DNA from: Bugula neritina
Lineage: Eukaryota; Animalia; Bryozoa
Reading direction: 5' to 3'
NCBI GenBank assembly: GCA_964035545.1
Contig: OZ037771.1
Span: 14,197,133-14,261,132, forward strand
Length of the DNA stretch: 64,000 nt
Shown: piece by piece, positions 1 to 46,200 of the stretch
How positions within the stretch are numbered: position 1 is the stretch's first letter
Layout: every line of letters begins with the position of its first letter
The notes under the pieces: generated by a model
Database searches by the model: none
Seen by the model: only the letters and a program-made list of their open reading frames with translations
What the model was told of the DNA's origin: nothing
Position numbers and translations under genes: made by a program

Positions 1-3000
1 AAAAATGGAGACGGACGATGCTGGGACACCACCACAGCCGATAGAAGGTGAGCGTGGAGATAATGTTGTTTCTGTAAATCCTGTAGTAGAAGAGCGAAGA
101 TCGATACCGGTTGAAGGCACCCACTTTCACGGGTGAAGAAGAAGTGGAACAGTTCATGCAGGAGTTTAGTGACGTGATGGAGGTCACCCAATGGCCACCT
201 AGGGTGGCCCTGCTAAAGCTTAGGATGTCGTTGATGGATACGGCCAAGCCCTATGGGTTAGGACCGCATATCGACAGTATCTTTGCGGGCCTGTTTTGGC
301 ATCTTTGCCATAGACGCCCGGGCCCGACTACAAAGGCTGCGACGTGATCCTCACACCCCGCTACAAGAACATGCCGCCACGGTGATGAAGCTGGCGCAGA
401 TTGCGTCTAGTGTTCTACCTCAAGCTAACCGTGAACGGTATACTTTTGACGCCTTTGTGCAATCTATTAACGACTTGGGACTCCATCACCAATTTTTGGC
501 CAGGGGAGTTACCACAGTCGAAGGCGTCCTCACAGAAGGGGAGGCCTATCTTCTGGCAAACCAGATGCATGAGAACCGCGGAGTTTCCCGCCAGGTGGAA
601 GTAGAGTCAGCGGTCGCTCTAGCCGATCCAGAAGCGGAGCCCTCTGTGACCGCTGCCGTGGGATAGTTAACTGCCTCATTAAAAGTCGCACAACTGACTG
701 ACATGTTGGCTAAACTGGTCACAGCACTGACACACAAAACCCCGGTAGGCACCGCCTGCGCGCCTCCGTGGCCGCTGGCGCCACCACCAGGGGAAACAGT
801 CAGTTTTTGCTGGGAATGTGGAAATTCAGGAAATTTCCGTAGATACTGCCCCTTTCTTGTTCCGGGGTTAAACTACCGCGGCCCACAGATGTCCCCGCCT
901 CCTGCGGGCCGGCGATGAATCTTCCAGGGAAGAAGAAACGCAGGTCACCCAGACGGGTACCGCGTACCAACAACCAGGAGTGGCATACACCACGGAGAGC
1001 AGGTAAGGGGCACCGCCCCGCTGTTACCTTCTCTATGCCACTCCACAATAGGTTTGACGGGCTACCAACCCAAGAATCGGAGTGGGGACCAGTACAGGTG
1101 CCAGAAGACACACCTCCCCCTCCGAGGTCACCCCGCAACCGTCCCAAACGACTACCTCTCCGACCCACAGCGAGAGAGGTGCTCCCTGCAAGAGTACGGC
1201 ACAAAGAGAGAGTACGGATGCAGCCCCATGGGAACAGCTATATCTTACTCGGCAAGATAGCGGGTAAAGCAGCTACCTTCCTGCTCGATTCGGGCTGCAC
1301 CACGAACCTCATAAGTTGCCAACTCTTCGCCACCCCCTGAGCGCTAGGGTCCAGGACGAGATGGAACCATACGATGGGGAGTATGGCACCCTGGCAGACA
1401 GGTCGTGCAGTCCCTTCTATGGTATAATTGAGCTAACGGGACGTGTCCGAGATCAAGCTATCCAGGAGACGTTTATCGTCAGTCAGCTGAAAGAAGATGC
1501 TATCCTCGGAATGCCGTTTTTGAAACGGCACGGATGTCACATTGACTTCAGTAAGTCTGCAATGGTGATGTCCGGGTGAGAACTAGCCTACGTCGACAAC
1601 TTTGGCCGTCTTCTAGTGGGAGGTGTGCAGGTAGTACGGAACTGTACAATACCAGGCCGCTCCGGGGCTACTATATACTGCAGGGTGAACAATAGCCAGA
1701 TCTCCGGATTGGGGGTGGTGAAAGGTGCGCACCATAGAATCCAACTCGCAAGCAGCCTGAATCAGCTGACTGCGCGAGGAGAGATCTTGGTGCAGTGCGT
1801 CAACCCCTTCACGGAGTCGGTAAAGCTACCGGCATGGTTCATTCTGGGCCGTTTCCACTCTGTCCAGGAAGAGGACGTGGGACCGTCCTTGGGAGATGCG
1901 GCGGATTGCCCCCCACAGCGCCCGCCAAAAGGGCGGGGGACCGTCCCGCCGCACATCAAAAAGTTGTATGAGACAGCCTGTGGTGGCTGTGCGAGCAATG
2001 AGGAACGCCAGGCTATGGCGAAATTGCTACGCGACTACGGTGATGTGTTCAGCAGCGGAGATCATGACGTGGGGCTGACCAGAGCTGTCAGACACAAGAT
2101 ACCGCTGGCTGCAAGGACAGTCCCTATTCGGCAACCCACGCGGAGTTTGGGGCCGAAGAAGGAGAAGGAGGTCAGCCTACAGGTCCGGAATCTTTTGGAC
2201 CGCGGCCCCATAGAGCCACCCCATAGCGCATGGAGCTCGCCGGTCGTTTTGGTCCCGAAGAAAGACGGAAGTTGGCGGTTCTGTGTAGACTACCGCAAGC
2301 TCAACAGTCTCCCATGGTAGCAGACACGCCCGAAATCTTATTCACTCCTGATGAACCAACCTCCGCGGAGATGGAAGAAGAGCTAGAATTCCCCACCGGA
2401 AGGCTATGACTCCACCACCAGACAGCCCAACCCGTCTGGCCACCGTAGAGGAGCGACTCCTTTGCTTACAGGCCGACTTCACGCAACTAGCCCCAGACTT
2501 GTTAAACACGACGACTGGGCTATACCAGCTTAAGGGCTCGGTGGAAAGAATAAAACGGAGACTGCGTGCCGGCCAGGCTAAGCATCGGCTCTCTGAACAA
2601 TGACAATAGTCCTCGTCCATGGGACCTATCTGTGAATCTTGTCCTTCCTGGGAATTCCCGATGTACAATATTATGATCACGTGAATGCCTGTTACTTTCT
2701 CTTCCTTGGCTACCACTATAGTTAGCACTACTTATCTTTTTATAGCTGATCAATTGCCGATACCTTGTTCTTGTTGTAATGATTATATTTTTGTCGTCAT
2801 TTATGTACATATATACTATATTATGTAACTCACAGGATAGTTAATGGCATCCTCACTAAGGATATCATAAATTTCTCTCAAAATGTTGTTTAGGTTCTTG
2901 AATAATATAGCTCTGCGGGTGGCATGCGTGTTGCCTACTTGCAATTGTTTAGCCTAAGATCAAACTACAACCAATAAGCAGCAACCTTCATTAGGGCTGC

Positions 3001-3684
3001 GTCATCCATCAACATTCCATTATGGGTGCTACATAAACAAAGAACAAAGCAAGCTATTCATTATAGCCTGCCAGCTAGCAAGCCTGTAATTAGTATGTAC
3101 ACGCCAATATCTTCTCATCCCTACCTGCTCATTGAAGCGCGAAGTGCTGCGCGCTGCTAGTTTCCTATGAAAAAATATAGCATTTTCAGTGTATAAATTA
3201 CCAATTTATGAGCAATCTAGCAGAATTATGGAAAAAAAAAGAAAAGATGCACTGGAGAAATATCTCAGAATTCCAGCGGTGCAATCTTTATTCAGATATC
3301 ATGTTTTGCTGCTGAGATATTTTACTAGTACTGAAAAGTCAGCTTTTCAGGCAAAATTGGCCAAAACTGGGCAGTTTTTTATCTATAACTTTGCAAAAAA
3401 AATGAAAATTGAAATTTCCAAAAAATTTGCACTGGAGAAAAAGAAGACCTACAACATAGTTTTCGAATTTTGATTCTAGCGCAGTTAGGTGAGATTTTAT
3501 TTTATTGGTACTGAATTCTTATATGATTACAATGCAAACCTCAGCAAGGCAGTTGCAGCTAAAAGGTTGCCCTTAACTATCCTGTGCTGCTTTTATAATA
3601 TTCTGTACTTTGCGAAGGAGTGTATTTTTTTATCAGAAAGTGGGCTTTCTGCTGGTGGGGGCGGTGTGGTGGCTTGTGGAGCTA
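1..3684 (+). mobile_element. Degenerate, internally deleted Gypsy LTR retrotransposon (copy A); its 5' LTR lies outside the window
   Basis: Frameshifted gag (5-918, zinc knuckle CWECGNSGNFRRYC), protease LLDSGC (915-1340) and RT N-terminus ending at WRFCVDYRKLNS (to about 2308), joined directly to the C-terminal part of ORF3 (2302-2603). PPT-like ggtgggggcgg plus the first 20 nt of the LTR (tgtggtggcttgtggagcta, 3665-3684) match the reverse complement of 30255-30309. Confidence 0.9.
2302..2603 (+). pseudogene. C-terminal remnant of the Gypsy accessory ORF3 (coiled coil)
   Basis: QQSPMVADTPEILFTPDE...RLATVEERLLCLQADFTQLAPDLLNTTTGLYQLKGSV aligns with ORF 30568-31422; one frameshift near 2375-2400. 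Confidence 0.85.
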
Positions 3685-9502: not shown

Positions 9503-13309
<3,807 letters not shown>

Positions 13310-22906: not shown

Positions 22907-25816
22907 TTATTTTTTTATCTGGAAATTTGCCATTAGATGGTCTCTCAGGGCAAGTTTGAAACCAGCCTCCCTCTCCACAGCACGAATAGAACTAGGCAAT
23001 TTATTCCATAGCGACGAACATTGGAATTCCACTCTTCGTTGACCTGCAGCAGTTGATGATGGAGGAGTTTGTAGGCTGAACTCTGAAAATCTTGTGGGAT
23101 AGTTATGTGTGAGATGTGTTAGTTGAGAATAGTAAAGTTTATGTGAGAGCAGTATTAATTTGAATTTGTGTAGAGTGTGAATAGGCATGATTGAAGAACT
23201 AAGAAACAGTGGTTTAGATGGGGAAAGGTGATGCTTTTTATATATAATTCTCAGTATTTTCTTTTGCAGTAAATGTAGTGGTTCAAGATAAATGTTTGCT
23301 GCATTACCCCACGATTCTAGGCAATATGTTAATTTAGAATTTACAAAAGAGTTATATATTTGTATTAGAATTTTTCTAGGTAGGTGATTGGAACATTTAC
23401 TTATCAAGCCTACTAAGGGCCTTAGGTTTTGACAAAGTTTGCTGCAATGTTGTTGCCAAGAAAGATGTGAATCTATTATAATACCTAAGAAGGTAGTTGA
23501 TTTTACTTCCACTAATTTTTTGTTAAACATTTCTAAGGCAAAGCCATTTAAATCTTGTTTATTTTGCGCTGTTTTGATTATCATATAGTTTGTTTTACTC
23601 ATATTTACAGTTAATTTATTTTTATTGCACCAATTTTCAATTTTCTTTAATTCACAGTTTATGACGTCCATATTGTTTAATAGATTTTTTGATTCAAAGA
23701 AGAGGTTCGTATCATCGGCAAATAATATAGGGTCTAAATGCATAGTTACATCTGGAAGATCATTTATATAAATTAGGAATAGTGTGGGACCAAGTATGGA
23801 TCCTTGTGGTACTCCACATGTGATATGAATAAAGTCAGAATATGTGTTGTTAATAATAGTAGACTGTTGACGATTGGACAGATAATTTTTAATTAGCTTC
23901 ACACTGTGACTTGAAAAGTGGAGCATTTTTAATTTAGCTAATAAGATTTCATGATTTATTGTGTCAAAGGCCTTACTAAAATCGAGGAAAATTCCAGCTA
24001 CAGAATTACCATTGTTCATGGCATTTAAAACCTTATTTGTTAGATTAATTAAGGCAATATTTGTGTTTCTATTTCGTCTAAAGCCGTACTGCTTATCAGT
24101 TAAATAATTTTTGCTTTCTAGAAAATCTACTATTTGCTTATTTAAAATCTTTTCAGCTATCTTACTGAAAACAGGTAGTATAGAAATTGGGCGGTAATTA
24201 CTTACATCAGTAGCTATGCCTTTTTTGTGTAGAGGAACAACTTTAGCTTTTTTTAGTTCATTTGGAAAAGCGCCATCATTGATAATTGTGTTTATAATGT
24301 AAGCTAAAGGCTTTGAAAGATGAGATGCAGATATTTTTATTAGGTTGGTGGGAGCTAAATCTAATCCTGCAGCTTTGGCTGGGTTTACATCTTTAAGTAA
24401 GCTTTCAATGACTGTGCTTTCAATATTTGTAAAGCTAAACTGTTCATCAAGTTTTTTATCTGACTTCTGAGCTGTAAAATCAAAATTGTCGTCAGTGAAT
24501 TTCTTTGATAACGTTGTTCCTATGGAAGTAAAGTATTTATTAAAACTGTTTGCTATGTCCTTATTTTCAGTTAGTGTAATATTTTCAGATGTTAAACTTT
24601 TAGGAGCATTTAATCTCTTTGATCGATTTTTTCCTAGATGTTCGTTTATGACTTTCCAACATTTACTAGAATCTGAAGTATTTTTAAAAAAAGATTCAAA
24701 ATATAAAGTCTTGGATCTACGCAAATTCTTCGTAACTAAATTTTTTAGAGTTTTATGTTTAAATTTAAGTTTCAAGTTTAGAGGGGAATTTAAGGATTGT
24801 CTATAAACATAATCCCTTTTGTTCATCAGCTCAATTAATTCAACACTAATCCAGGGTCTTTTATTTGTTTTAAGTTTGCGTGGCCAATTTGTTGAGAATT
24901 TTACTAATGGAGCATGTTTATTGCATAAATCCATAAATATTTTAAAGAAACTGTCATACCTAGAATTCACATCTTTCTTGGCATATACTTTGGAGTTCCA
25001 GTCTACTTTAGAAAGATCTTTCAAAAATAGTTCTTCATTTATTTTCTTATAATTTCTAATGTTTGTAGATTTAGTTATATTAAAATAGTTAGTTAAATTT
25101 TCTATTTTGATAAAAGTAGGCAAGTGATCTGCTATGCTTGTTGTTATTGTTCCAGATGTTAAGAATTTATCATAAAAATTAACATTTATATGATCTAAGC
25201 AAGAATTGTATCGTGTAGGAATCTGAATTGAATTTATAAAATGAGAGCAGGATAGGATGTTGAGGTAAGATGTACTCACAGGATCGGATTTAAGAGTGTC
25301 GATATTGATATCACCTAGTATGACATGATGTGGAAAATTAGAAGAACTGATGTACTGCTCCAGGTCAGAGAGAAAAGCTCCAATGTCCGCCGATGGTTGC
25401 CTGTAAATGATTGTGAGGTGAAGACCACTCCTAAAGCACCCAAAGAGACCACCCTTTAGCTCCAAATGTAAAGATTCACTGCCTGCAAAAAGTGCTCGAC
25501 TTTCCTTGACTTCAGCCACAGCACTACTGCGCACATAGGCCCCGACACCACCTCCTTTACTCTGTCTCTGCTTACCTATAAAAACATAATCATTTATGGG
25601 AAAATTATGTACTTCATTATCATAAAGAAAACTTTCAGTAATACAAACAACATCAAAAGGTTTAGGAACACTAAACATAAATGTTTCTAGGGAATCAAAA
25701 TTTTTACGAAGGCTTTGTACATTAACATTCAAAATAGTAAGAGAATTGGAATTATTTTTTATATTATTTCTAAACTGTTCTGGCGTGTATTGATCACAGT
25801 TTAGGTGTGCTTCCAT
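22907..25816 (-). CDS. LINE ORF2: APE endonuclease plus reverse transcriptase, 969 aa
   Basis: Endonuclease motifs NVQSL, ITES, GGGV, GDIN, LDH and DH. RT motifs YRPISIL, QYGFR, FLDFSKAFD, GVPQGSILGP, FADD and FLG. Confidence 0.97.
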   Translation of the reverse strand: MEAHLNCDQYTPEQFRNNIKNNSNSLTILNVNVQSLRKNFDSLETFMFSVPKPFDVVCITESFLYDNEVHNFPINDYVFIGKQRQSKGGGVGAYVRSSAVAEVKESRALFAGSESLHLELKGGLFGCFRSGLHLTIIYRQPSADIGAFLSDLEQYISSSNFPHHVILGDINIDTLKSDPVSTSYLNILSCSHFINSIQIPTRYNSCLDHINVNFYDKFLTSGTITTSIADHLPTFIKIENLTNYFNITKSTNIRNYKKINEELFLKDLSKVDWNSKVYAKKDVNSRYDSFFKIFMDLCNKHAPLVKFSTNWPRKLKTNKRPWISVELIELMNKRDYVYRQSLNSPLNLKLKFKHKTLKNLVTKNLRRSKTLYFESFFKNTSDSSKCWKVINEHLGKNRSKRLNAPKSLTSENITLTENKDIANSFNKYFTSIGTTLSKKFTDDNFDFTAQKSDKKLDEQFSFTNIESTVIESLLKDVNPAKAAGLDLAPTNLIKISASHLSKPLAYIINTIINDGAFPNELKKAKVVPLHKKGIATDVSNYRPISILPVFSKIAEKILNKQIVDFLESKNYLTDKQYGFRRNRNTNIALINLTNKVLNAMNNGNSVAGIFLDFSKAFDTINHEILLAKLKMLHFSSHSVKLIKNYLSNRQQSTIINNTYSDFIHITCGVPQGSILGPTLFLIYINDLPDVTMHLDPILFADDTNLFFESKNLLNNMDVINCELKKIENWCNKNKLTVNMSKTNYMIIKTAQNKQDLNGFALEMFNKKLVEVKSTTFLGIIIDSHLSWQQHCSKLCQNLRPLVGLISKCSNHLPRKILIQIYNSFVNSKLTYCLESWGNAANIYLEPLHLLQKKILRIIYKKHHLSPSKPLFLSSSIMPIHTLHKFKLILLSHKLYYSQLTHLTHNYPTRFSEFSLQTPPSSTAAGQRRVEFQCSSLWNKLPSSIRAVEREAGFKLALRDHLMANFQIKK

Positions 25817-25878
25817 GAATTTGAAAAAAAATATAGTTACAGAAATTAAAAATCAGAGGATATGGAGTAATCATGTGT

Positions 25879-26589
25879 TTAAGCGAGGTCATCTAAATCA
25901 TCTGTCGAATTGATCTGTATTGCATTACTATCACTGTCTTTCCTTAGGAAGATTCTTTGGTTTGATGTCCATGCAAAACGGTATTTATGTTCTTTTTTGA
26001 ACATGCGAGTCTCATGAAAAAGAGCAGCTTGAGGTTTGCTCAGCACTTCATTTATGTAGAGCTTAGAGTTGTCTTTAAAACCTAAGTCTGTTGCATTTAG
26101 AGGGTTTTTTCTAAATGATCCAAAGAACTTGTCACGTTTATGAGCGTGAATAAATTTAATTATAACTTTGTCAGATGTCTTGACTCTAAAAATTGAGTCT
26201 ATGTCATGGTAGGGTTGAAGTTCGCATTTTAGTTTTTCACTCATAACTTTCATGGCATGTAATAAGTTCTCTCCAGATTTTTGTGGTATTCCATTTAATG
26301 TCAACTGTTTTTTACGATCTTGGAATTCTAGTTGATCCACACGGTCTTTCACATCTGGAAAATCTTTTAGGAAACACTTCATTTCATTTCTTAGTAACTT
26401 GATATCATCAAATTCTTTGCTCAAAAATTTGCAGGTTTTAATTACTTCAGCCTGTTCAATTTCTACTTTCTTCAACCTACTATCAAAGTCATTTAGTCTT
26501 GCTAAGATCTGATCTAACTTTCCATGGATAGATGAATCGGGTGTAGATTCACTAGTTGAACTAGTGGCTGATTTAGCTCTACGAACCAT
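25879..26589 (-). CDS. LINE ORF1: coiled coil, RRM-like region and C-terminal domain, 236 aa
   Basis: Heptad region followed by RKKQLTLNGIP, IIKF, LYINEVL and KYRFAWTSNQRIFLRK, typical of ORF1p in this LINE group. Confidence 0.88.
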   Translation of the reverse strand: MVRRAKSATSSTSESTPDSSIHGKLDQILARLNDFDSRLKKVEIEQAEVIKTCKFLSKEFDDIKLLRNEMKCFLKDFPDVKDRVDQLEFQDRKKQLTLNGIPQKSGENLLHAMKVMSEKLKCELQPYHDIDSIFRVKTSDKVIIKFIHAHKRDKFFGSFRKNPLNATDLGFKDNSKLYINEVLSKPQAALFHETRMFKKEHKYRFAWTSNQRIFLRKDSDSNAIQINSTDDLDDLA

Positions 26590-27419
26590 GATTCAAGATA
26601 ACGATTTTATAGATATCACTGTCCCTATCCAGCTAGTTATGTAGTATGAAGGCAATATATAATCCACTGTTCACAGAAATAGCTTTTCTAAGCTTTATCC
26701 AGAGAGCAATGTAAAACACAACCTGTTCTGTTGAAAGCCAACTGCCAACTGTGTATGTGTACTATATACTAATATATCATGTGTACTGTACACTAATCCA
26801 TTGTGTATAGTTGTATTGTAGCAGGCTTTACAATGCACAAAAGCAAATAAACATAGAATAATATAGTTCATACAGACCTATGTTAGCATGCACGGTGCTA
26901 CTAGCTTACATTTCCGTAAAGTTCCATTGCAGTGCCAATGAAAGGCCATGGCTTTGGGCCAGGAATACCAGATCTGTTAAAGTGGCTGTAAGTGTGGTGG
27001 TTGTATCTACAATTACCATTTAGTGTTACCAACCTCTAACATCAGCATACGGTAGTTATAGTAGCACCACCAGGTGAAACCAGAATGTGATGTCTCCATT
27101 GTGCTAAGAGTGAGTGTGTTTTAAATATATCTATCAAACAAGATAATTATATACCAACACTTTCATAGTTCCTTTAGCACACAACCAATATAACCGTATA
27201 TGTAATAGTATATAGTATTAGTATATAATATTGTTCAAGGCAAGCATTTGGCCTTAAAAAGTAGGAAATGGTGGCGCTCACACACTTAGAGCTAAAAACT
27301 ACAGAGTACTTTATAGTATTACTTAGATGTAAAGTACCAGTACTAGTACTAGTAGTATACTAATTGCACTAGTACTATAGTAGTATACTAAGTACTAGTA
27401 GCAGAGTTTAGAATAATAA

Positions 27420-28631: not shown

Positions 28632-31600
28632 ATGATGTTCATATCTATACTTCTGGTCCTAATTGTTGAAGCTAGCGTGAGTCTGAGTGTTTCTGACACA
28701 CCTTCTTGTCCGCAGTTGGGATGTGATGGTGCTGGTACGTTTACTCAAGGTTAGTATTTTCATCATCCATATTTACAAACTTAGAAATATTTTTTGCTTG
28801 CTTAATGTCTTTAAGCAAATAACAACATTTATAATTTCACTAATTATATTATTCTAACAATAACATTGCATGAGAAGATGACTTCAAGGTACCAATTACC
28901 GGGGAAAGAGCGGCCAAGTGGGTACGGTATGACTCATTTGCATCTCCGATGAACCCTCAGATAATAAACTATGGTTGTGTTGGAAACTCCAAACTCTTAG
29001 TGTGCCCACACCAACAAGATGGAGAAGCTGTGTGAGTTGATATCACTCAATGTGCACTGTATAACCTATAAGAAATCATTTAAATGTTTTTTATTTGTAA
29101 GAGCGTTTAGACAATCAAGGAAATATTACTTTTCACTTGTATTGATGATTATTAAAATGCTTAAAGCCTAACATTAAGGGAGCTAGCAAGTTGAAGCAGT
29201 TGTAAGATGCTTTTGGTTATAGGAATCTATATGAAAAGTCATAATAGAAAAGGTCTATAATCTATATTTTAGTTTCAAGATGCACAATATATTTTTTGTA
29301 AATGAGTGTTTAATTTTTATAATTTGTTATTTTACAACTTAAACAATATCAATTTAGTCTTCAATTTCAAAATTGTAGACATCTAATGTTGAACTCAGAC
29401 ACCGGAGTGGAGTACGATACGGCAGGATATGACACGTTACGTAATGTCAGCATGCCAATTCTGACTAAAGATAATCTTGTGTTTGCTGTCAATGGTTCAC
29501 ACGCTTCTCTGGTTGATCCCATAAACAATGACTCATACATTACCAAACTACCCATGGAAAATCCCCAAGGAGTTCATAGGTGAGGAGTTGTCTCTCTTTA
29601 TGTTACTCTACTGAAAACCTAGTCAGGTGATTAGTAATGTTTCTGTCGCAATTAAACTTATCAACTTATAAATAATATTAAAATAATTGCTAGATGCAGC
29701 ACAAAGTTTGGAGTTTGGTGGGGTTTGATCTTTAGGGTTGGGTGACAAGCTTGGTCTACTGCACTCAATGACTTCAAGCTGTGTGCTGCATTTAGAGATT
29801 TCATAATGTCAACCATGTTTTAGTCTTCTTTTAGATCAGCAACTATTTAAAGTTTCATTGTAATAATAATAAACCTTAACTGATAATAATATGGTTTATT
29901 ATCTTGCATATAAAAATAAATGACACGTGTGACATTTGGTCACTATGAGAAGCAGTAAGCTGTAATATTGTTATGATTTTCAGATTTAGGGTTGATATGC
30001 TATCCAGAGAGTCTAATTACTTGCTATAGAACTGCACCAGGATAAGTCGAGTGAACGAGTATATATTTTACACACAATAATACATTATAAAACGATACAA
30101 ATACATCTGACAATTTACACATCTAGTCTATTCAGCACTCTAACTTCGACTGAGTTAGCAGGGGGAAACTATAATTTCTGCTAACTATTAAACACGCTAA
30201 TTGGCTATCCATTGTTCCGGGTCAATTACGCGACCCTACATGTTGTGCTGCTGGTAGCTCCACGAGCCACCACACCGCCCCCACCAGCAGAAAGCCCTCT
30301 TTCTGATATAAAAAAAAATGTTCATTATTAACCACATACATCAGTAGACCAAAATAATACATAACACATAATATAAAGATACATAATAACAGACAGAGTC
30401 ATTATAACAGCCAGTTACATACAATTGCCCAGCTATAGAGGAAGAATACCGGCTAGCTGTGGTGTTAGACAAGGAGTAGGCCTGTCGAGCAGTCAAGCAT
30501 TTACATGACCTTCTTGGGTCTCCCAAGAGGACGAAGTTGTGGATTATTCCGGGTAGCAGAATTAGAGTCATTGTTGGGCACGCCGGTGCTTGGCTTGGCA
30601 GGTACGTAGTTTCCATTTAATCCAGCTTACTGATCCTTTTAGTTGGAAGAGCCCCGTCGTAGTATTAAGTAGATCCGGTGCTAACTGGGTAAATTCTTCT
30701 TGTAGTCGGAGGAGGCGTTCCTCTACTGTGGCCAGGCGAACTGGGTCTGGGGACGATGTCCGTCTGCGGCGCAGAGGGGGACTGGGAGACCTGGTTCGTC
30801 TCTTCATCGGGGTAGGGGAGACCTCTCCTTCTTCTGGATAGGCAAACTCGTCGGGGGTGTACACCATCTGAGGGCGGTCAGATACCAATGGGGATTGTTG
30901 TCTGGCATAGTCTAATACGCGTTGGAAACCCGAAGTCAGAACGGCCAACAACATTGCCTTCTTTACTAGGGGTCGTATCAGGGTGAGGAATTCCGGATAG
31001 AGCTTGGCATCGACCACATAATTCTCTCCAGAGAAACAGCCCGCCGCTCGATGTCTGGTGACGGGGTAGGGGTAAACATCATTGTATCCACAGGGGCAGA
31101 ATGTGAGTAGGAGATGGGCGTTGACATGTAGCTTCAAGGAGCGGTGAGAGGCACATTCTTCGCCACAAATCTGGCATCGCGTCCGTCTTCTGGACCCCCA
31201 GGCCGTTTCTATTTCCTCCTCTGTTTCTGGAGACACCCACCGCCAACGGCGGCGTAGTGGCTCGGGCCGGTCACCATTGGCATACTCCTCAGGATGCGGA
31301 GCGGGAAGTGCTCTATCCCGTACCCTGGTTGTAGCGGGTCGAGTGTAATCTGAAAAAGTTTCAACAGTGTTAATACAGTACACTGCCGTGTTGTCAGCTT
31401 GAATAGCTTGGCAACTACTCATTCAGTTACCTCGTAGACATTTATGGTAGTGAATAGTCAGATAGAACACGTATTGCAATGAGATTATAAAAATCTCTAA
31501 GTCAAACTGAGTTTTTACTACGGTATTTCACTAACCTATCTCCAGCTCGATTGACTCAGTGAGTCGGAGCTGAGCGATGCAATCTAGTTTCATATTAAGA

Positions 31601-34600
31601 TATAGTTAACTCACCCCACGATCTGTTGTCGTAAGACATACTGAATGTGTGAAATGGTTTGAACTACTGCTTAGAAACACGTCTACTCCTGACTGCATCA
31701 GCGTATGAAAAGATCGAGCAACGTGGTTGGGGTGCGTGATTAAGACTTTGTGCACCCGGCGGATGAATTTTGTTTCTATTTCTGCCGATACAAAAGTTGA
31801 TATTTTCGTGGTGTTGACAACTTCCACATTTGCTCGATACTTTTCTCGTACGGTTTTCCCCTAGACTTTCATACGCGCCGCTACTAACGCAGTCGCATAC
31901 GAAGTCCTTCAAGTATGCATGGGGTTGCCTCGTACGCTGCCCCCTTTCTAGGGGGGGGTGACACGCTCGCCGGTTCGTTAGTAGGGGCCTCTAATGGCGT
32001 CTCTACTTCACCGTTAGCGGTCGCCTCTTCTTGTTCTCCGGATGGAGCCCCTCCCTCCGTGGGGGTTTGCACTTCCGGAACCGGCTCGGTTTCAGGAAGT
32101 GATGGAATTAGACTTGGCGGTGGCGGACACGCTTCCGTTGGCAAAAGCTGTCGCTCCTCTCTCACCAAGTTTTCTTCCCGCGGTATGACCACTTCGTATT
32201 CAGGTCCATGCCGCCGTCGCCGCGCGTTGTTGTCTGCCTCCTGGGCTCCAACAACGGGGGGGCTTCTCCCACTGCGTCGGGGCTAACCCAATACGGTTTC
32301 AAGCAAGACTCATTCTGGATAGACACCTGTCCTGAGCGCTCAATCTTGTACCTATGATTGGGCATAGCCTCGACGATCACGTAGGGTCCTACGAACTTAG
32401 GCTTTAGTTTATCAGCCTGTCTGCGACGCCTACGGTAATTGACCATCCACACCTTATCTCCCGTTTGGTAGAGAGGTGGTTCATCGGAATCTTCATGCCG
32501 CACCTTCCACTGCTGTTCGCGCAGTATATCGTGTGCGGCCTTCATCCGTTCCACTAGTTCACTGGCATACTCGTGAACCGAGTTGTCTTGCTCTGGAACG
32601 TGGTAGGTAAGATGGTCAGGGACACGAGTCTTTCTCCCGAGCATCAAGAGGTTTGGGGTCTCACCAGTACTGGTGTGTGGGGTGCTACGGTATGCACGCA
32701 TGACTTGCGGCAACACCGTATCCCATTCCTCTTGGCCTCGTCCAAGGAGGAGACTCCGGAGCGCATCACCTAGCATCCGGTTGTTGCGCTCCACCACCCC
32801 GTTACCTTGAGGGTGGTAGGGGGTGGTCCGGCTCTGATTTACTCCCCAGAAGTGGCAAAGGTCGCACATCAGTTGAGACTGAAATTGAGCGCCTTGATCA
32901 GAGTGTGTCTGTTCGGGGAGACCAAAATAACAGAATACATGTTGGTCTAGTGCCCTGGCCACTGTTGGGGCTGACGCATCTGGGATAGCCAGAGCATCCG
33001 CCCACCTAGTAAAGTGGTCGGTTAGTACTAAGGTCCAACTATTGCCTCTGGGGGTCAGGGGCATGGGTCCGACCAGGTCTACAGCGACTACTTGCCAGGG
33101 CCTTCCAGCATATAGCCTCCGCCGTCCTGCTTCACCAGGGGGGCGGCTATGCTTATTGGCCTGGCAGATCTCACACTGTTTGACTCTGAGCCGGACGTCA
33201 CGCTCCATTTGTGGCCAATACCATCGGAGTCGTAATTTGGATATCACTCTCTTGACCCCTGCGTGGGCCTGTTTGTGAGTATCCCAAATCAACTCACGGC
33301 GGATGGCAGTGGGGCAGACTACCCTCTTCCTCTCCGGGTGTCTGCCGCTGGCGGCTAGAGAGATGGTTAGTAACCCATCCTGCCCGATCCGCAGCGAGTC
33401 CCAACGCTGACAGTATAGCCACTCAGCAAGTCTAACGTACTGAAGTACTTGCTGCCGGCTAGAGCGTCCAACAACTCGTCAATACGAGGTAGAGGGTAGG
33501 CGTCCTGTATGGTTACGCTATTGAGTTTGCGGTAATCCACACAGAACCGCCAACTGCCGTCTTCCTTCCGGACCAGCACGACCGGCGAGCTCCACGCACT
33601 ATGGGCGGGCTCTATCAATCTCCGGTCCAGAAGATCCCGTACTTGTCGGCTAACCTCCTTCTCTTTCTCCGGCCCCAGTCTGCGTGTTGGCTGCCGGACA
33701 GGGACTGTCCCTGCAGTCAGCGGTATTTCGTGTCTGACAATTTCAGTCAGTCCCACGTCATGATCTCCGCTGCTGAACACATCAGCGTAGTTGCGTAGTA
33801 ACTTCGCCATAACTTGGCGTTCTTTGTTACTCGCGCAGCCGCTACAGGCTGTGTCATACAACTCCCGGAGATGTGCTGGGACTGTCCCTCGCCCTTGAGT
33901 AGGGCACTGAGGGAGTGCCTCTGTCGCATCACCCAGCGACGGGCCTACGTCCTCCTCCTGAACAGAGTAAAAACGGCCCAGCATCGACCCAGCCGGAAGC
34001 TTGACAGACTCGGTAAAGGGGTTGACGCACTGCACTAAGATCTCCCCTTGCTCAGTCAGCTGATTCAGACTGCTGGCAAGTTGGATCTTTTCGTGCGCGC
34101 CTTCAACTACCCCGAGTCCAGAGATCCGGCTATTGTTCACCCTGCAGTGAATGGTAGCCCGGGCGCGGCCTGGTATGGTACGGTTGCGTACCACTTGCAC
34201 ACCTCCCACTAAAGGGCGGCCGAACTTGTCGACGCAGGCGAGTTCTCGCCCGGACATCATCATCGCAGATTTGCTAAAATCGATGTGACATCCGTGCCGT
34301 TTTAGGAACGGCATCCCGAGGATGGCGTCCTCCTTGAGCTGACTGACGATGAACGTCTCTTGGATTGTTTGATTACGGACTCGTCCCGTCAGCTCAATTA
34401 TACCATAGAAGGGAAGGCACGACCCGTCAGCTAGGGTGCCGTACTCCCCTTCGTATGATTCCATCTCGCCCCTGACCCTAGCACTGAGGGTATCGAAGAA
34501 TTGGCGGCTCAAGAGGTTCGTGGTACAGCCCGAATCAATGAGGAAAGTAACAGCTTTGCCTTCCAGTTTACCGGGCAAGAAATAGCTGTTCCCATGGGGC

Positions 34601-37600
34601 TGCACCTGAACTCTCCCTTCAGGCCTTACTTTCGCAGGGAGTACCTCCCTCGCTTTGGGTCGCGAAGGAGGTCTCTTGGGGCGGTGGTAAGTAGGCCTCG
34701 GGGGTGCCGAGGCTAGATTCCCAGCTACTTTTGTGGGCTCCCATCCAGACTCTTGGGCTTGTAGCCCTGCGAATCTGTTGTGAAGGGGCATGGAAAAGGT
34801 AGCGGCGGGGCGGAGCCCCTTGCTGGTCCGTCGTGGCTGTTGCCACGGTTGGTTACCAGTACGCGGTACCCGTCTGGGTGACCTGCGTTTCTTCTTCCCT
34901 GGAGGTTTCATCGTCGGCCCACAGGAGGTGGGAACATCTGCGGGCCACGGTAGTTTAACCCCTGATTTAGGAAGGGACAGTATCGGCGGAAATGTCCTTG
35001 ATTTCCGCACTCCCAGCAAAAACTGACTGTTTCTCCCTGTGGCGGCGCCGGTGGCCGTATGGGCTCAGTGGCGGTACCTACTGGGGTTTGGGGTGTCAGT
35101 GTTGCTATCAGTTTGGCCAGCATGTCTGTCAGTTGAGTGACTTTCAATGCCGTCGCCAGCTGGGACACGGCAGCCGCGGCGGGGGTTTCCTCCCCTTGCT
35201 CCGTGGCCGTGTCCGCGCGGTCTACCTCCACTTGACGGGAGCTCCCGCGACTTTTATGCATTTGATTAGCTAGGAGGTAAGCTTCCCCCTCAGTCAGAGC
35301 ATCTTCAACGGTGGTGACTCCCCTAGCTAGAAACTGGTGGTGGAGACCCAAATCGTCGACAGATGCTATGAAAGCGTCGAGGGTATACCTCTCGCGGTTG
35401 ACTGGGGGCAAGTCGCTGTATGCGAACTGTGCCAGCTTCATGACCGCGGCGGCGTGCTCCCGCAGCGGGGTGTGGGGATCACGCCGCAACCTCTGCAATC
35501 GGGCCCTGGCATCTGTAGCAGAGAGGCCGAAGCGGGCCCGCAGAGAAGCAAAGATATTATCAATGTCTACGCCCAGCCCATAAGGCTTGGCTTTGTCCAT
35601 CAATGCCATTCTAAGCTTCAGCAAGGCCACCCTAGGGGGCCACTGGGCGACGTCCATTACGTCGCTAAACTCTTGGATAAATTGTTCCACCTCCTCTTCG
35701 CCCGTGAAGGTGGGCGCCTTTAACCGGTAGCGGTCTTCAGTTAGTTCTCGCGGAACCCTTCGCTCTTCTACTACATGGTTAACAGGCATTGTCTCTACAG
35801 CATTGTCTCTACGCTCACCTTCTACTGCCGGTGGTTGCGTTCCAGCATTTTCAGTCTCCATCTTGGATGCACTATCCCACCGCTGCCACCACTGTTATGA
35901 TTTTCAGATTTAGGGTTGATATGCTATCCAGAGAGTCTAATTACTTGCTATAGAACTGCACCAGGATAAGTCGAGTGAACGAGTATATATTTTACACACA
36001 ATAATACATTATAAAACGATACAAATACATCTGACAATTTACACATCTAGTCTATTCAGCACTCTAACTTCGACTGAGTTAGCAGCGGGAAACTATAATT
36101 GCTGCTAACTATTAAACACGCTAATTGGCTATCCATTGTTCCGGGTCAATTACGCGACCCTACATGTTGTGCTGCTGGTAGCTCCACGAGCCACCACAAT
36201 ATGACTACAGATTAAAATGTTAACAGAAACAACGCGGTGCTAAATCTATACAGTTTGAAAGTCTAGTTGACAAATTCAGAAGTACGACTGCTATACTAGA
36301 TTTATTTCATCTGTATTTCTAATTATATTCTAGTCCAATCTACTTGCCGGAGCTCGACTTCTTTGTAATCTTTGGCAACTTCAGTACATCACATTCTATA
36401 TATAAGATTACTAAAGGAATAAATGGAATGGCTGGTAGGTAATTGATTTCCTGTTTTCTTACTATTTGTTTGATGTCAATTTATAAATTGTAATAGTGGA
36501 ATAATATAAAAAGCTTCTAACATAAAAATCACGCTGAATTAATGAAAAACATTGCATTTTTGAGTTTTTTTTAAGAAAAGCATTTTGATTTGAATTTTAC
36601 AGAGCTTGACCTTTTGACAACCTTCACAGTAGAGAAAGAAGGTAAACAGTGCCCATGGCTACCAATGACCGAAGTGACCACCAATGGGAATAGAGCTTAC
36701 TTCTACGCCTATCAAATAAATGTAAGTATATAAGGCAGCGCTGGCAGCATATAAGGCAGCATACATTTTATTGACAGTGAACATGTTTTAGGCCATTGAG
36801 CAATAAATAGCACATGGAATAGTCACTGAATCAATTTTAATTGATGATAATTGCATGACTATAAAGTTAGAAATACAACAAATAATTTCATAAAGCTTCC
36901 ATAAAAGACTAAATAATGTACTATTATTTTACCAATTAGCATCATGTGTATCAGATATTATTTCATCAGTTTGTAGAGTAAATCAGCATACATATTAGTC
37001 TCACAAAGGTTTTGGTTTAGGCCATGAGATTATATTGCAACATGTAATATACTATAACACGTAGGGCACTGTAACATATAGCGTACTGTACTGTAAGATA
37101 TTATACTGTAACATACTACAGGAGATAGATGGTATAGTGGCCGTTGAGTTTATGGAGGATCACCCTTACTACACGAAGATCTGGGAAGTCTCGGATGAAG
37201 AGGGATCTCAGGTTCTAGTGAGCAGCAGACGTCATGGCGTGAGGGCAGATGATAACTGCACTGTCATCCCTCAAATTGACCCAGACTATTCAATATTTCC
37301 ACCAAGTAAGCCTCCACTACGTAGTAATATAAAATAATCGACATTGTACGAAATAAAATGCTGGTGCAGCATTTGATGACATAATAATCGGAATTCCCGA
37401 CGCTACTACATAAGTATTATCTATTGGTATTTCCACTATACTGCATATTATCTCACTGAAATATACAGGACTACTAGTCTACTACAATCAGTAATGTTTA
37501 GTTATATCATGCTATCAGTTCTCAATTCACTAACACAACCCCCTAATGCACTACACAATTATTATAAAACTATTTTAAAATAATTGCACAAAATCAGCTA

Positions 37601-43219: not shown

Positions 43220-46200
43220 ATGGCAGCCACTACTACTGTAGAGAAAGGCTATAGGCAAGTCATCGAGAGTTATCAGTCCCTTCTTGAGAAAAACTTGATT
43301 CTTACGGATGATTTCTTCCGAACTCTTGTAACTCATGGCGTGTTCTCTGAGCCGTTACTCAATGATATTAAGGTGAGATATACTACGTGCCCCAAACTTG
43401 TTTAAAATAGAACCTGGCTATTTTGCTTAATGCATGTTTTTAAGAATGCAGAGCGTGCATTGCTAATCTTTCAATTTTATAAGTGTTTTAGTTTGATGCA
43501 AACTGGGTACAAAATTTTGTGCAAACTTTAAACTGGGCAGCAAAAAATATTTGGATCAAATATTTACAAGGTTTCCTTTTATAATGTTTTGTCTATTAAC
43601 GCTTGAATCCATGCTATTACTGCGAATTTTGATCTAATGCACACTTAGGAACAAAAATCGTGCTGCTGCGTAGCCTAGATAATTGTTGCTTTCTATATTA
43701 TATTTTCTTAAATAATATTTAGTGTGGAATAAAGTTGTCTTCTGCGTTTTGAATTTGATATTTTATTTGATGAAAATTGGAGATATACCAAACATACTCT
43801 GCATGCAAATATTTATAAAAATTAAATGCAACGTGAAGCCTGTCAGTTGAAAGTATCACCTAAAGTTTGGCAATGATTGTTTTGGCCATATTCTTACCCG
43901 CACCATATTTGTATTATATATACAAAACACTGTGTTGGTTAGAATCATATTGTACTAAGCTATCAAATGATACAAAATGGTCAAGTTAGTAGCAGTAAAT
44001 CTTTAAAATATCGGAAATTACAGTTGGCTTGCTATATGCAGCCATTCAAATGTCAATAAATAAGAATAATTACAAGCAATGGTCTATTTCAATAGATTAT
44101 TCGAATATAGTATTGAACTACTTGGGCAACTATTAATATGCTTGTCACTGTTAAATACATGGCAATGAAATGATAATTTTAAAGTTATTTTCAAACTAAT
44201 CAGTTCCAAGGTCTTCCTTCACATATAATTGAAGGTAATGGCGTCTTTAGATGTCCTTAATTTGCCCGATCAGCATTATGCGTTCTGTTACAAGGACACC
44301 TATGTACTATACGTTAATGTAGATTGAACTGTTGACACTTGCGTTGTGGGCCGAGGAACTTTTATTGGAAATCATGACTTTAATATTCTTCACATTACAC
44401 AGTTGACATGATGTTACATACAGCCTGATTTCTAGACTATAGTTTGGTTTTGTATAGTCTGATTAAATATCTATAATATTTTATAGAGCCTATTTGACCT
44501 TGAGAATTTAGTAGCTTTTAACATATATTACAAGCTGTACTACACTATGCTATGCTATATGCTACTATATATAGTAGCATACTATGCTATATACTATATT
44601 GTAATATATTGTAATATATTATATTATATTATATTATATTATATCATATCATATCATATCATATCGTATCATATTATATTATATTATATTATATTATATT
44701 ATATCATATCGTATCGTATCATATTATATTATATTATATTATATTATATTATATTATATTATATTATATTATATCATATCATATCATATCGTATCATATT
44801 ATATTATATTATATTATATTATATTATATCATATCATATCGTATCATATTATATTGTATTATATTATATTATATTATATTATATTATATTATATCATATC
44901 ATATCATATCGTATCATATTATATTATATTATATTATACTATTCACAGACACTTCCTGCCCAGGAAAGAACTCACAAGATGGTGGAACTGTTAATGACTC
45001 GCACAGCCACAGGTTTCAGGAAGTTTGTAGACGTCCTTGAAGTTACGGGGCATCATTTTCTCTCCGACTGTCTGCGAGAAGCAGGTACTCAGGCTATCTT
45101 CTCTTCTCTGAGGCTATATTCTATTCTCTGAGGCTATATTCTATTCTCTGAGGCTATATTCTATTTTCTAAAGCTATATTATATTATCTGAGGCTATATT
45201 AGATTCTGTGAGGCTATAGTCTATTATTAGTAAACTAAAAGTATATTTATAGTTTTGCTATTAGAATGTTGTTTTAAAAGTAATCGCTATGGTAACCAAT
45301 AAAGTGATTGAAAGCTCAAGTGATCCCGTCCAGGAATGAAGTACCTAATGAAGAGTTTTATTAATAAAATGGTTTTCACTTCATTCTCAGTTTAAATATA
45401 TAGATACAGCATTTGCCCTCTGATTAAATTACAAGTGATTGTAAAGCTGTTACTTTAACTTGTAAACAGAAACTGGGGAGACGATTTCTGACATTGACAT
45501 CAATGACTTGAATAACCGACTGCCTTTCATCAATAAAGCTTTAAAGACGGAGCAGCAAAAGAATGCTGTCAGACAATTCTTTAGAGAAGCAGTAAGCAAT
45601 AAAAATATTAAATAAAAAAATAAATAAATAAATAGATAAATAAAGAATTAAATATGCAAACAAACAAATAGATAAATAATTAAATAAATGAATAAAGCAC
45701 TTCAGTGTTTTTCACAGAGAAATTTTTTTCCTACAATGGCTAAAACTGTTTTGATCATTTTAATTGCATCTTTTTAACAAAATGAGATATTTTAAACTTT
45801 CAAATACAGCATGTTCAACTTCAAACTTACTAAAGATTACTTATTAATTTATACTTCTTTACAACAATTTAGTATAGCAGCTACAGTTAAATTTAAGCTT
45901 TTAAATATTAATTCAAATTGCTGTAGCTGTAATTATCAAACGTCAGTTTTATCTACAACTAAGAGAAGTTATAAACTTTCATAAGATAAATCTTTTGTGA
46001 AAGTTTAGTGAGCAGAATTTATCAAAAATTAATTTTTTTTGATAATTTAGTATGAGGACTAAAATGCCTAAGAATAATAAAAAACAGAATACATTTCAAT
46101 AAAGTAAATTAATAAATAATTCATTATACAAAACTGCTGATATATAAAATGACGTTAATTACAGATTCAGAAGGAGGTAGTGAGGTGTACGTGGAAAGGG

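Follow-up and report, generated by a model that had tools for sequence, protein, structure and literature searches.

A non-env accessory gene for a predicted double zinc-finger/coiled-coil protein in a bryozoan Ty3/Gypsy element

The window, the whole stretch of 64,000 nucleotides from Bugula neritina that was analysed, carries an LTR element at 29969-36198 on the minus strand (element B). The open frame studied here, ORF3, lies in sense orientation to it. Element B had a TG...CA LTR pair, a target-site duplication, a primer-binding site and a polypurine tract, as in Ty3/Gypsy elements, and Pfam searches placed gag, protease, reverse transcriptase (RT) and integrase upstream of ORF3 in the Gypsy order. 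The two LTRs were identical at 304 of 306 positions (2 differences), marking a young Ty3/Gypsy insertion. The parts of the element are as follows.

35893..36198, minus strand: 5' LTR, 306 bp, TG...CA, from comparison of both LTRs
29969..30274, minus strand: 3' LTR, from the LTR comparison
36199-36202 and 29965-29968: target-site duplication ATAT, 4 bp, in the flanks
35874..35891, minus strand: primer-binding site, from sequence inspection, which we take to be of the tRNA-Leu type
34908..35861, minus strand: gag with a CCHC knuckle (zf-CCHC E 0.15, under the Pfam cut-off)
33367..35064, minus strand: 5' part of pol, protease and N-terminal half of RT (Pfam), with a break near 33415-33422
31655..33420, minus strand: integrase (H2C2, rve, SH3_Tf2-1) and pol tail (Pfam and public contigs; pol end approximate)
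30275..30285, minus strand: polypurine tract, from the sequence

The order of protease, N-terminal half of RT and integrase fitted the PR-RT-RH-IN arrangement, from which RH has been deleted in element B. This deletion removed the C-terminal half of RT together with RNase H, and its break lies near 33415-33422. Loose ends occurred at 33415-33422 in contigs of all 4 sequencing runs compared; this divergence in 4/4 runs implied that other copies carry different sequence there. According to public contigs, the integrase/pol frame was also shifted near 32219 and 31951. A contig of run X4 joined the flanks of 29969-36209 without the element, and from this empty allele the insertion of element B is probably recent and polymorphic. 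In contigs 85-93% alike, the relatives were contiguous from ORF3 through to the polypurine tract and LTR, and from the predicted splice acceptor (below) into the pol tail. None of the compared contigs covered one complete element, so that ORF3 is a presumed rather than an observed part of fully autonomous copies. A stretch of about 170 aa between protease and RT (33775-34287, minus strand), kept in copy A, had no Pfam or PDB match.

A relative of element B opens the window.

1..3684, plus strand: copy A, a diverged dead relative with stops in gag and pol

A deletion near 2302-2311 in copy A joined early RT to ORF3 aa 175 and removed both ORF3 fingers. The ORF3 remnant at 2302-2603 comprised aa 175-192 and 216-280 only, in different frames, and the 3' end kept, at 3625-3684, the polypurine tract and the opening ~20 bp of the 3' LTR. 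Element B and copy A are both non-autonomous. The preliminary description had stated that copy A keeps the ORF3 C-terminus; this stood for the stretch it compared, where 15 residues were identical and 13 of 15 codons differed, but the copy is broken and without the fingers.

Three other features of the window were recorded. An apparently intact LINE lies at 22907-26592 (minus strand), with an ORF1 of 237 aa (Baculo_FP_2nd, E 1.2e-11) and an ORF2 of 981 aa (endonuclease and RT). A 300-aa open frame at 10656-11558 (plus strand) contained an NHL repeat (E 1e-5) and is probably a host exon. At 45040-45131 (plus strand), a short peptide ended a low-complexity frame; it had no Pfam match and presumably resembles a CARD/death-fold exon.

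ORF3 itself has the following parts.

30568..31422, minus strand: ORF3, 284 codons as an open frame, its coding part probably beginning at codon 25 (31349)
30883..31272, minus strand: conserved folded domain, aa 51-180, with an N-terminal helix, two fingers, a strand and helices (alignment, profile, AlphaFold2)
31114-31176, minus strand: C2H2 finger (finger 1), C83-x2-C86-x12-H99-x3-H103
31036-31098, minus strand: second finger, CxC-x12-H-x4-C, C109-x-C111..H124-x4-C129
30748..30804, minus strand: basic Ser/Pro/Arg tract K207-P225 (aa 207-225), lineage-specific, in the disordered linker
30574..30744, minus strand: C-terminal coiled-coil helix, aa 227-283, with a basic patch at its end (model and homologs)

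A 284-aa sense frame in the env position had been noted before, and we located it at 30568-31422 (minus strand), between the integrase (32162-33478) and the polypurine tract and 3' LTR. Both finger motifs, the basic Ser/Pro/Arg tract and the C-terminal helix described for it were all present in element B. The claim that the protein lacks a signal peptide and a transmembrane segment also held. The highest 19-residue Kyte-Doolittle mean was 1.51, at aa 145-163, a segment inside the folded domain and modelled as helices continuous with the fingers. Inspection of the N-terminus revealed no hydrophobic core, simple hydropathy detected neither a signal peptide nor a C-terminal transmembrane anchor, and the C-terminus was basic. 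There was no env match in Pfam, and the sequence contained no RS dipeptide repeats and hence no SR/RS domain.

An AlphaFold2 model from a 51-sequence alignment folded aa 51-180 at block pLDDT values of 84-98; aa 231-284 formed a single helix (83-96), and the N-terminus and linker were disordered. An alignment of the close family gave a poor model, and the BFVD search was run with a low-confidence model. Finger 1 showed the C-x2-C-x12-H-x3-H spacing and the beta-beta-alpha fold of a C2H2 finger, although the single sequence stayed under the Pfam cut-off. A canonical TGEKP-linked array was absent, with 5 residues from H103 to C109 and a CxC-type finger 2. In the family profile, finger 1 alone found counterparts, among the C2H2 fingers of HIC2 (E 1.5e-7), SALL3 and ZBTB proteins. 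No PDB entry matched the full domain (best Foldseek E 0.51), and Foldseek also returned weak rows to BCL11A fingers. For the domain, none of the Pfam results examined passed its cut-off; SUZ12, POGZ-like and C2HE fingers matched weakly below it. The conserved core consists of a compact double zinc-finger domain, which the model folds with high confidence, together with a terminal coiled coil.

The domain belongs to a diverse family. A phmmer search yielded 58 ORF3 homologs among 2076 candidates, a profile search 140 among 7989, and a library of 50% representatives 109, the most distant of them at 26% identity. The conservation alignment used the 70 of these 109 that covered the finger region, giving 74 domain rows. 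The ligands were nearly invariant over the 74 rows (C83 in 70, C86 in 72, H99 in 71, H103 in 71, C109 in 74, C111 in 72 and H124 in 71), with C129 kept in 55; W62 was kept in 62 and D138 in 67. At the finger-1 helix, positions +2, +3 and +5 were Arg or Lys in 41, 36 and 41 of 55 rows, and +6 was Val or Leu in 34/55.

Outside the domain, conservation was looser. An Arg/Ser linker tract with at least 7 Arg/Lys occurred in 3 of the 39 close homologs scored (2 of 41 rows, unmatched by the pattern, were left out), so the RS-rich tract fell as a family feature. A basic motif ended the coil in 32/41 close homologs, and a basic patch followed the domain in 16/36 distant ones; a basic patch thus recurs, but its position shifts. 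Among distant homologs, the N-terminal part was net acidic in 31/35, acidic-hydrophobic patches were found in 11/35, and a terminal heptad helix was scored in 17/36 by a crude measure devised for this analysis.

When 30 distant homologs were looked up, 3 clusters carried an organism name. All were bryozoan and uncharacterised proteins, from Watersipora subatra (XP_067940964.1, XP_067944745.1) and Bugula neritina (KAF6040923.1). Only one distant homolog gave a sign of retroelement context: P0133, 39% identical to ORF3 and sister in the tree to the clade of the element B ORF3, had a stretch matching the pol tail of element B just upstream of its domain (E 2.7e-5). P0182 and P0233, W. subatra and B. 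neritina proteins, had a second, N-terminal domain in common (37% over 54 aa, pairwise E 2e-8), suggesting an orthologous host gene. The finger domain was present in two copies each in P0131/P0227 and P0233.

ORF3 evolved under constraint. Between copy A and element B, its pN/pS was 0.139 (bootstrap 0.064-0.251; pS 0.845, pN 0.118) over 51 ungapped codons, compared with 0.175 for gag (220 codons) and 0.205 for pol (322 codons). The comparison with gag and pol that had been proposed as a check therefore indicated purifying selection like theirs. The differences at codon positions 1/2/3 numbered 10/4/33. In the two other sense frames pN/pS was 1.35 and 2.91, and in the antisense frames 0.97, 0.32 and 2.74, the 0.32 belonging to the frame with common third positions. 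In public contigs, 23 of 35 ORF3 differences were at third positions and 22 of 35 were synonymous; 40 of 166 differences were listed, of which 5 were dropped (4 outside ORF3, 1 stop codon). Because copy A itself is broken, the signal between the two copies reflects active ancestors of both. The pS between them also varied by gene (0.45 in pol, 0.70 in gag, 0.85 in ORF3), which may reflect recombination among lineages or stronger constraint on pol. ORF3 is very likely a real gene under selection. To that extent the earlier proposal of a selected, non-env accessory gene has been upheld, by the constraint, the homologs and the ligands alike.

The start of the protein required revision. Translation of all 284 aa from the ATG at 31422 was not supported: of 33 proteins covering the start, just 2, the query and P0003, had a Met at this place (position -23). 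In 22 of the others the annotated start was a Met at -2 and in 6 a Val at -10; the remaining 3 extended beyond ATG 31422 and lacked a Met there. The acceptor sequence noted at 31357-31350 is present, and an in-phase partner donor was found in gag.

31350..31375, minus strand: predicted 3' splice site with a branch-point-like TATTAAC, a pyrimidine tract and CAG; last intron base 31350
35819..35861, minus strand: predicted first coding exon, the first 43 nt of gag, with the phase-1 donor AAG|GTGAGC; intron from 35818
31615..31639, minus strand: candidate for a different first exon, an ATG and 25 nt up to the second-best donor, phase 1; intron from 31614; region deleted in copy A

Scored with a consensus matrix of our own, the gag donor was the best of 366 GT sites in element B and of phase 1, like the acceptor. 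By a crude score, the acceptor at 31350 ranked in the top five of 465 AG sites; it cuts codon 25 in phase 1. When the first 150 nt of gag were shuffled, 177 of 5000 shuffles reached the donor score, 48 of them also in phase. The four codons around the donor were identical in copy A, and elsewhere in gag such a run occurred in 1 of 218 windows. A peptide signature, S/L-D/G-Y/H-T, marked the acceptor in 33 proteins including the query. Upstream of it, homolog peptides matched different frames of element B: P0018 and P0020 followed frame 0 first and then, with four others, had a His-Cys pair in frame +1 at equal distance from the acceptor. This switching, in a comparison of peptides alone, suggests that intron sequence has been preserved as DNA. 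No joint 35818->31350 occurred among 15 of 85 contig joints listed, and no matching loose end among 18 of 73 listed; both are weak tests, the contigs being mostly of uncertain or DNA origin. From these signals, ORF3 probably uses the gag donor, and the predicted product consists of 14 Gag residues followed by ORF3 from residue 25, ~274 aa in all. The annotation of 22/33 homologs with a Met two codons before the acceptor tells against gag splicing, and some lineages may start there.

We tentatively interpret ORF3 as an accessory gene of an env-less Ty3/Gypsy family whose spliced double-finger/coiled-coil protein acts as a nuclear, DNA-binding activator of its own LTR. The acidic disordered part, arginine-faced finger, basic patch and heptad helix give the layout of a dimeric transcription factor. 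Splicing would link gag codons 1-14 to codon 25 of ORF3, the basic patch would import the protein into the nucleus, the coiled coil would pair two finger domains, and the arginine-rich finger-1 helix would contact nucleic acid. The acidic disordered segments might then recruit the transcription machinery, creating positive feedback on transcription of the element. However, Val or Leu at +6 of finger 1 and the 5-residue spacing are unlike canonical base-reading arrays, and the acidic segments of P0001 are short.

The same protein might instead act on RNA, as CERV and Rev do: it would bind unspliced genomic RNA in the nucleus, multimerise through the coiled coil and license export, leading to Gag/Pol expression. 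We regard this as somewhat unlikely in itself, yet in our weighing an RNA exporter is a close second to the LTR transactivator ranked first, because splice signals in the genome are strong and the fingers depart from a canonical DNA-reading array. Genomic RNA with a strong conserved donor and acceptor must escape splicing or retention, and non-canonical finger geometry and basic tracts suit RNA binding. In the portions of PMC10309623 available, CERV of Cer1 is spliced, has the Gag N-terminus in common and is needed for export; but by the same account its 517 aa include a C4-type loop and a G-protein-like domain, both absent from ORF3, and it is not needed for transcription, whereas the acidic N-termini of ORF3 homologs suggest activation. 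Folding of two non-coding stretches revealed no structured response element (z -1.53 and -1.03).

Expression, rather than function, is at issue in a proposal that overlaps all functional ones: ORF3 could be transcribed from an internal promoter behind pol, as is foamy-virus Tas, through the 31639-31615 exon or the ATG next to the acceptor. Such a start would fit the donor at 31614, second in rank and preceded 25 nt upstream by an open phase-1 ATG, and also the Met two codons before the acceptor in 22/33 homologs. That donor is weaker than the gag donor (4.8 vs 6.3), and no TATA-like site was seen upstream of 31639, leaving this route unlikely. At 31495-31513 a 19-nt motif of the LTR reappears with 15/19 matches, which would suit a promoter there, but by rough estimate this is about chance level. 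The motif lies in the LTRs at 30138-30156 and 36062-36080 and is a candidate binding site at that same chance-level agreement.

Less likely again is that the double finger is a protein-interaction module; ORF3 would then bind a host protein, either to counter silencing or as an adaptor for chromatin or for integration targeting. Its compact fused fingers and hydrophobic +6 residue would allow this, and a mimic could compete with the host-annotated bryozoan proteins that contain the same domain (twice in two). The SUZ12, POGZ-like and C2HE resemblances point the same way, but all were below their cut-offs, and the conserved arginine face of finger 1 is better suited to nucleic acid. The env position and the long heptad helix would be accounted for if ORF3 were a reduced or decayed Env/fusogen, or else a piece of host sequence captured without function, but this is highly improbable and largely refuted by the missing signal peptide and anchor, the cysteines placed as zinc fingers and selection equal to that on gag and pol.

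A broader reading, which we hold with a little less assurance than the LTR-activator interpretation, is that bryozoans, and perhaps further marine invertebrates, might harbour a widespread and as yet undescribed lineage of 'complex' env-less retrotransposons. This lineage would encode a Tat/Tas- or Rev-like regulator of its own, made by splicing from the gag leader and containing a new double-finger domain that has also moved between elements and host genes, such as those annotated in Watersipora and Bugula. Complex retroviruses characteristically encode regulators of their own. For animal LTR retrotransposons, we found one characterised self-encoded regulator in the papers searched, CERV. The ORF3 family, which is diverse, unrelated to CERV and has a clear predicted splice, would be a second case, and with it one can test whether self-regulation of transcription or RNA export is common among env-less elements. 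The zinc-finger domain, without a Pfam family and common to uncharacterised bryozoan proteins, may record capture or domestication. No description of the ORF3 family was found in the papers searched, a search of literature rather than of Repbase, Dfam or GyDB.

Foamy-virus Tas acts by binding DNA and is our working model for the LTR-activator interpretation, with no zinc-finger homology claimed. In the part of PMC7828637 drawn on, it is a 3'-encoded transactivator of its own transcription in an enveloped retrovirus with an internal promoter. CERV, from the C. elegans Ty3/Gypsy element Cer1, is described in the available portions of PMC10309623 as a protein of 517 aa encoded by 5 exons; it contains a C4-type loop, and its domains are termed H, M and G. 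Its spliced mRNA has the Gag N-terminus, and the protein has a Cys finger, a leucine zipper and a candidate NLS, is nuclear and is needed for RNA export; that account found no homologs outside nematodes. ORF3 is likewise a Gypsy accessory protein with a Cys finger and a predicted spliced mRNA sharing the Gag N-terminus, but it has ~274 aa and a C2H2 plus CxC-H-C/H double finger, without a G-like domain. Set against the published description of CERV, it showed no sign of homology, and its model, one double-finger domain and one long helix, did not match the H, M and G domains.

Finger 1 fits the consensus of classical C2H2 factors (HIC2, SALL3/4, ZBTB, BCL11A), whereas the CxC second finger 5 residues away, within one 130-aa domain with extra helices, does not resemble them. 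Bryozoan errantiviruses have a gB-type ENV in the order GAG-ENV-POL, according to the available part of PMC13524379, in whose main text 'zinc finger', 'C2H2', 'extra ORF' and 'accessory' occur 0 times. Like errantivirus env, ORF3 is a third ORF of an animal Gypsy element, but it has no glycoprotein features. As candidate classes, Env, CERV and SR proteins all failed to include ORF3, which may still work like CERV or Tas. A general precedent is found in bdelloid rotifer LTR retrotransposons, where non-env ORF3s behind pol are family-specific and typically come from spliced messages; the types in the part of PMC5408684 consulted are GDSL esterase, DEDDy exonuclease, TM, CC and env, and 'finger' occurs 0 times in its main text. 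ORF3 of element B is similarly family-specific and behind pol, and within the types given there a coiled-coil one exists. On the sequence comparisons made here, it thus appears to be of a known kind, the non-env ORF3s, and what appears new is a double zinc-finger family in animal Gypsy elements.
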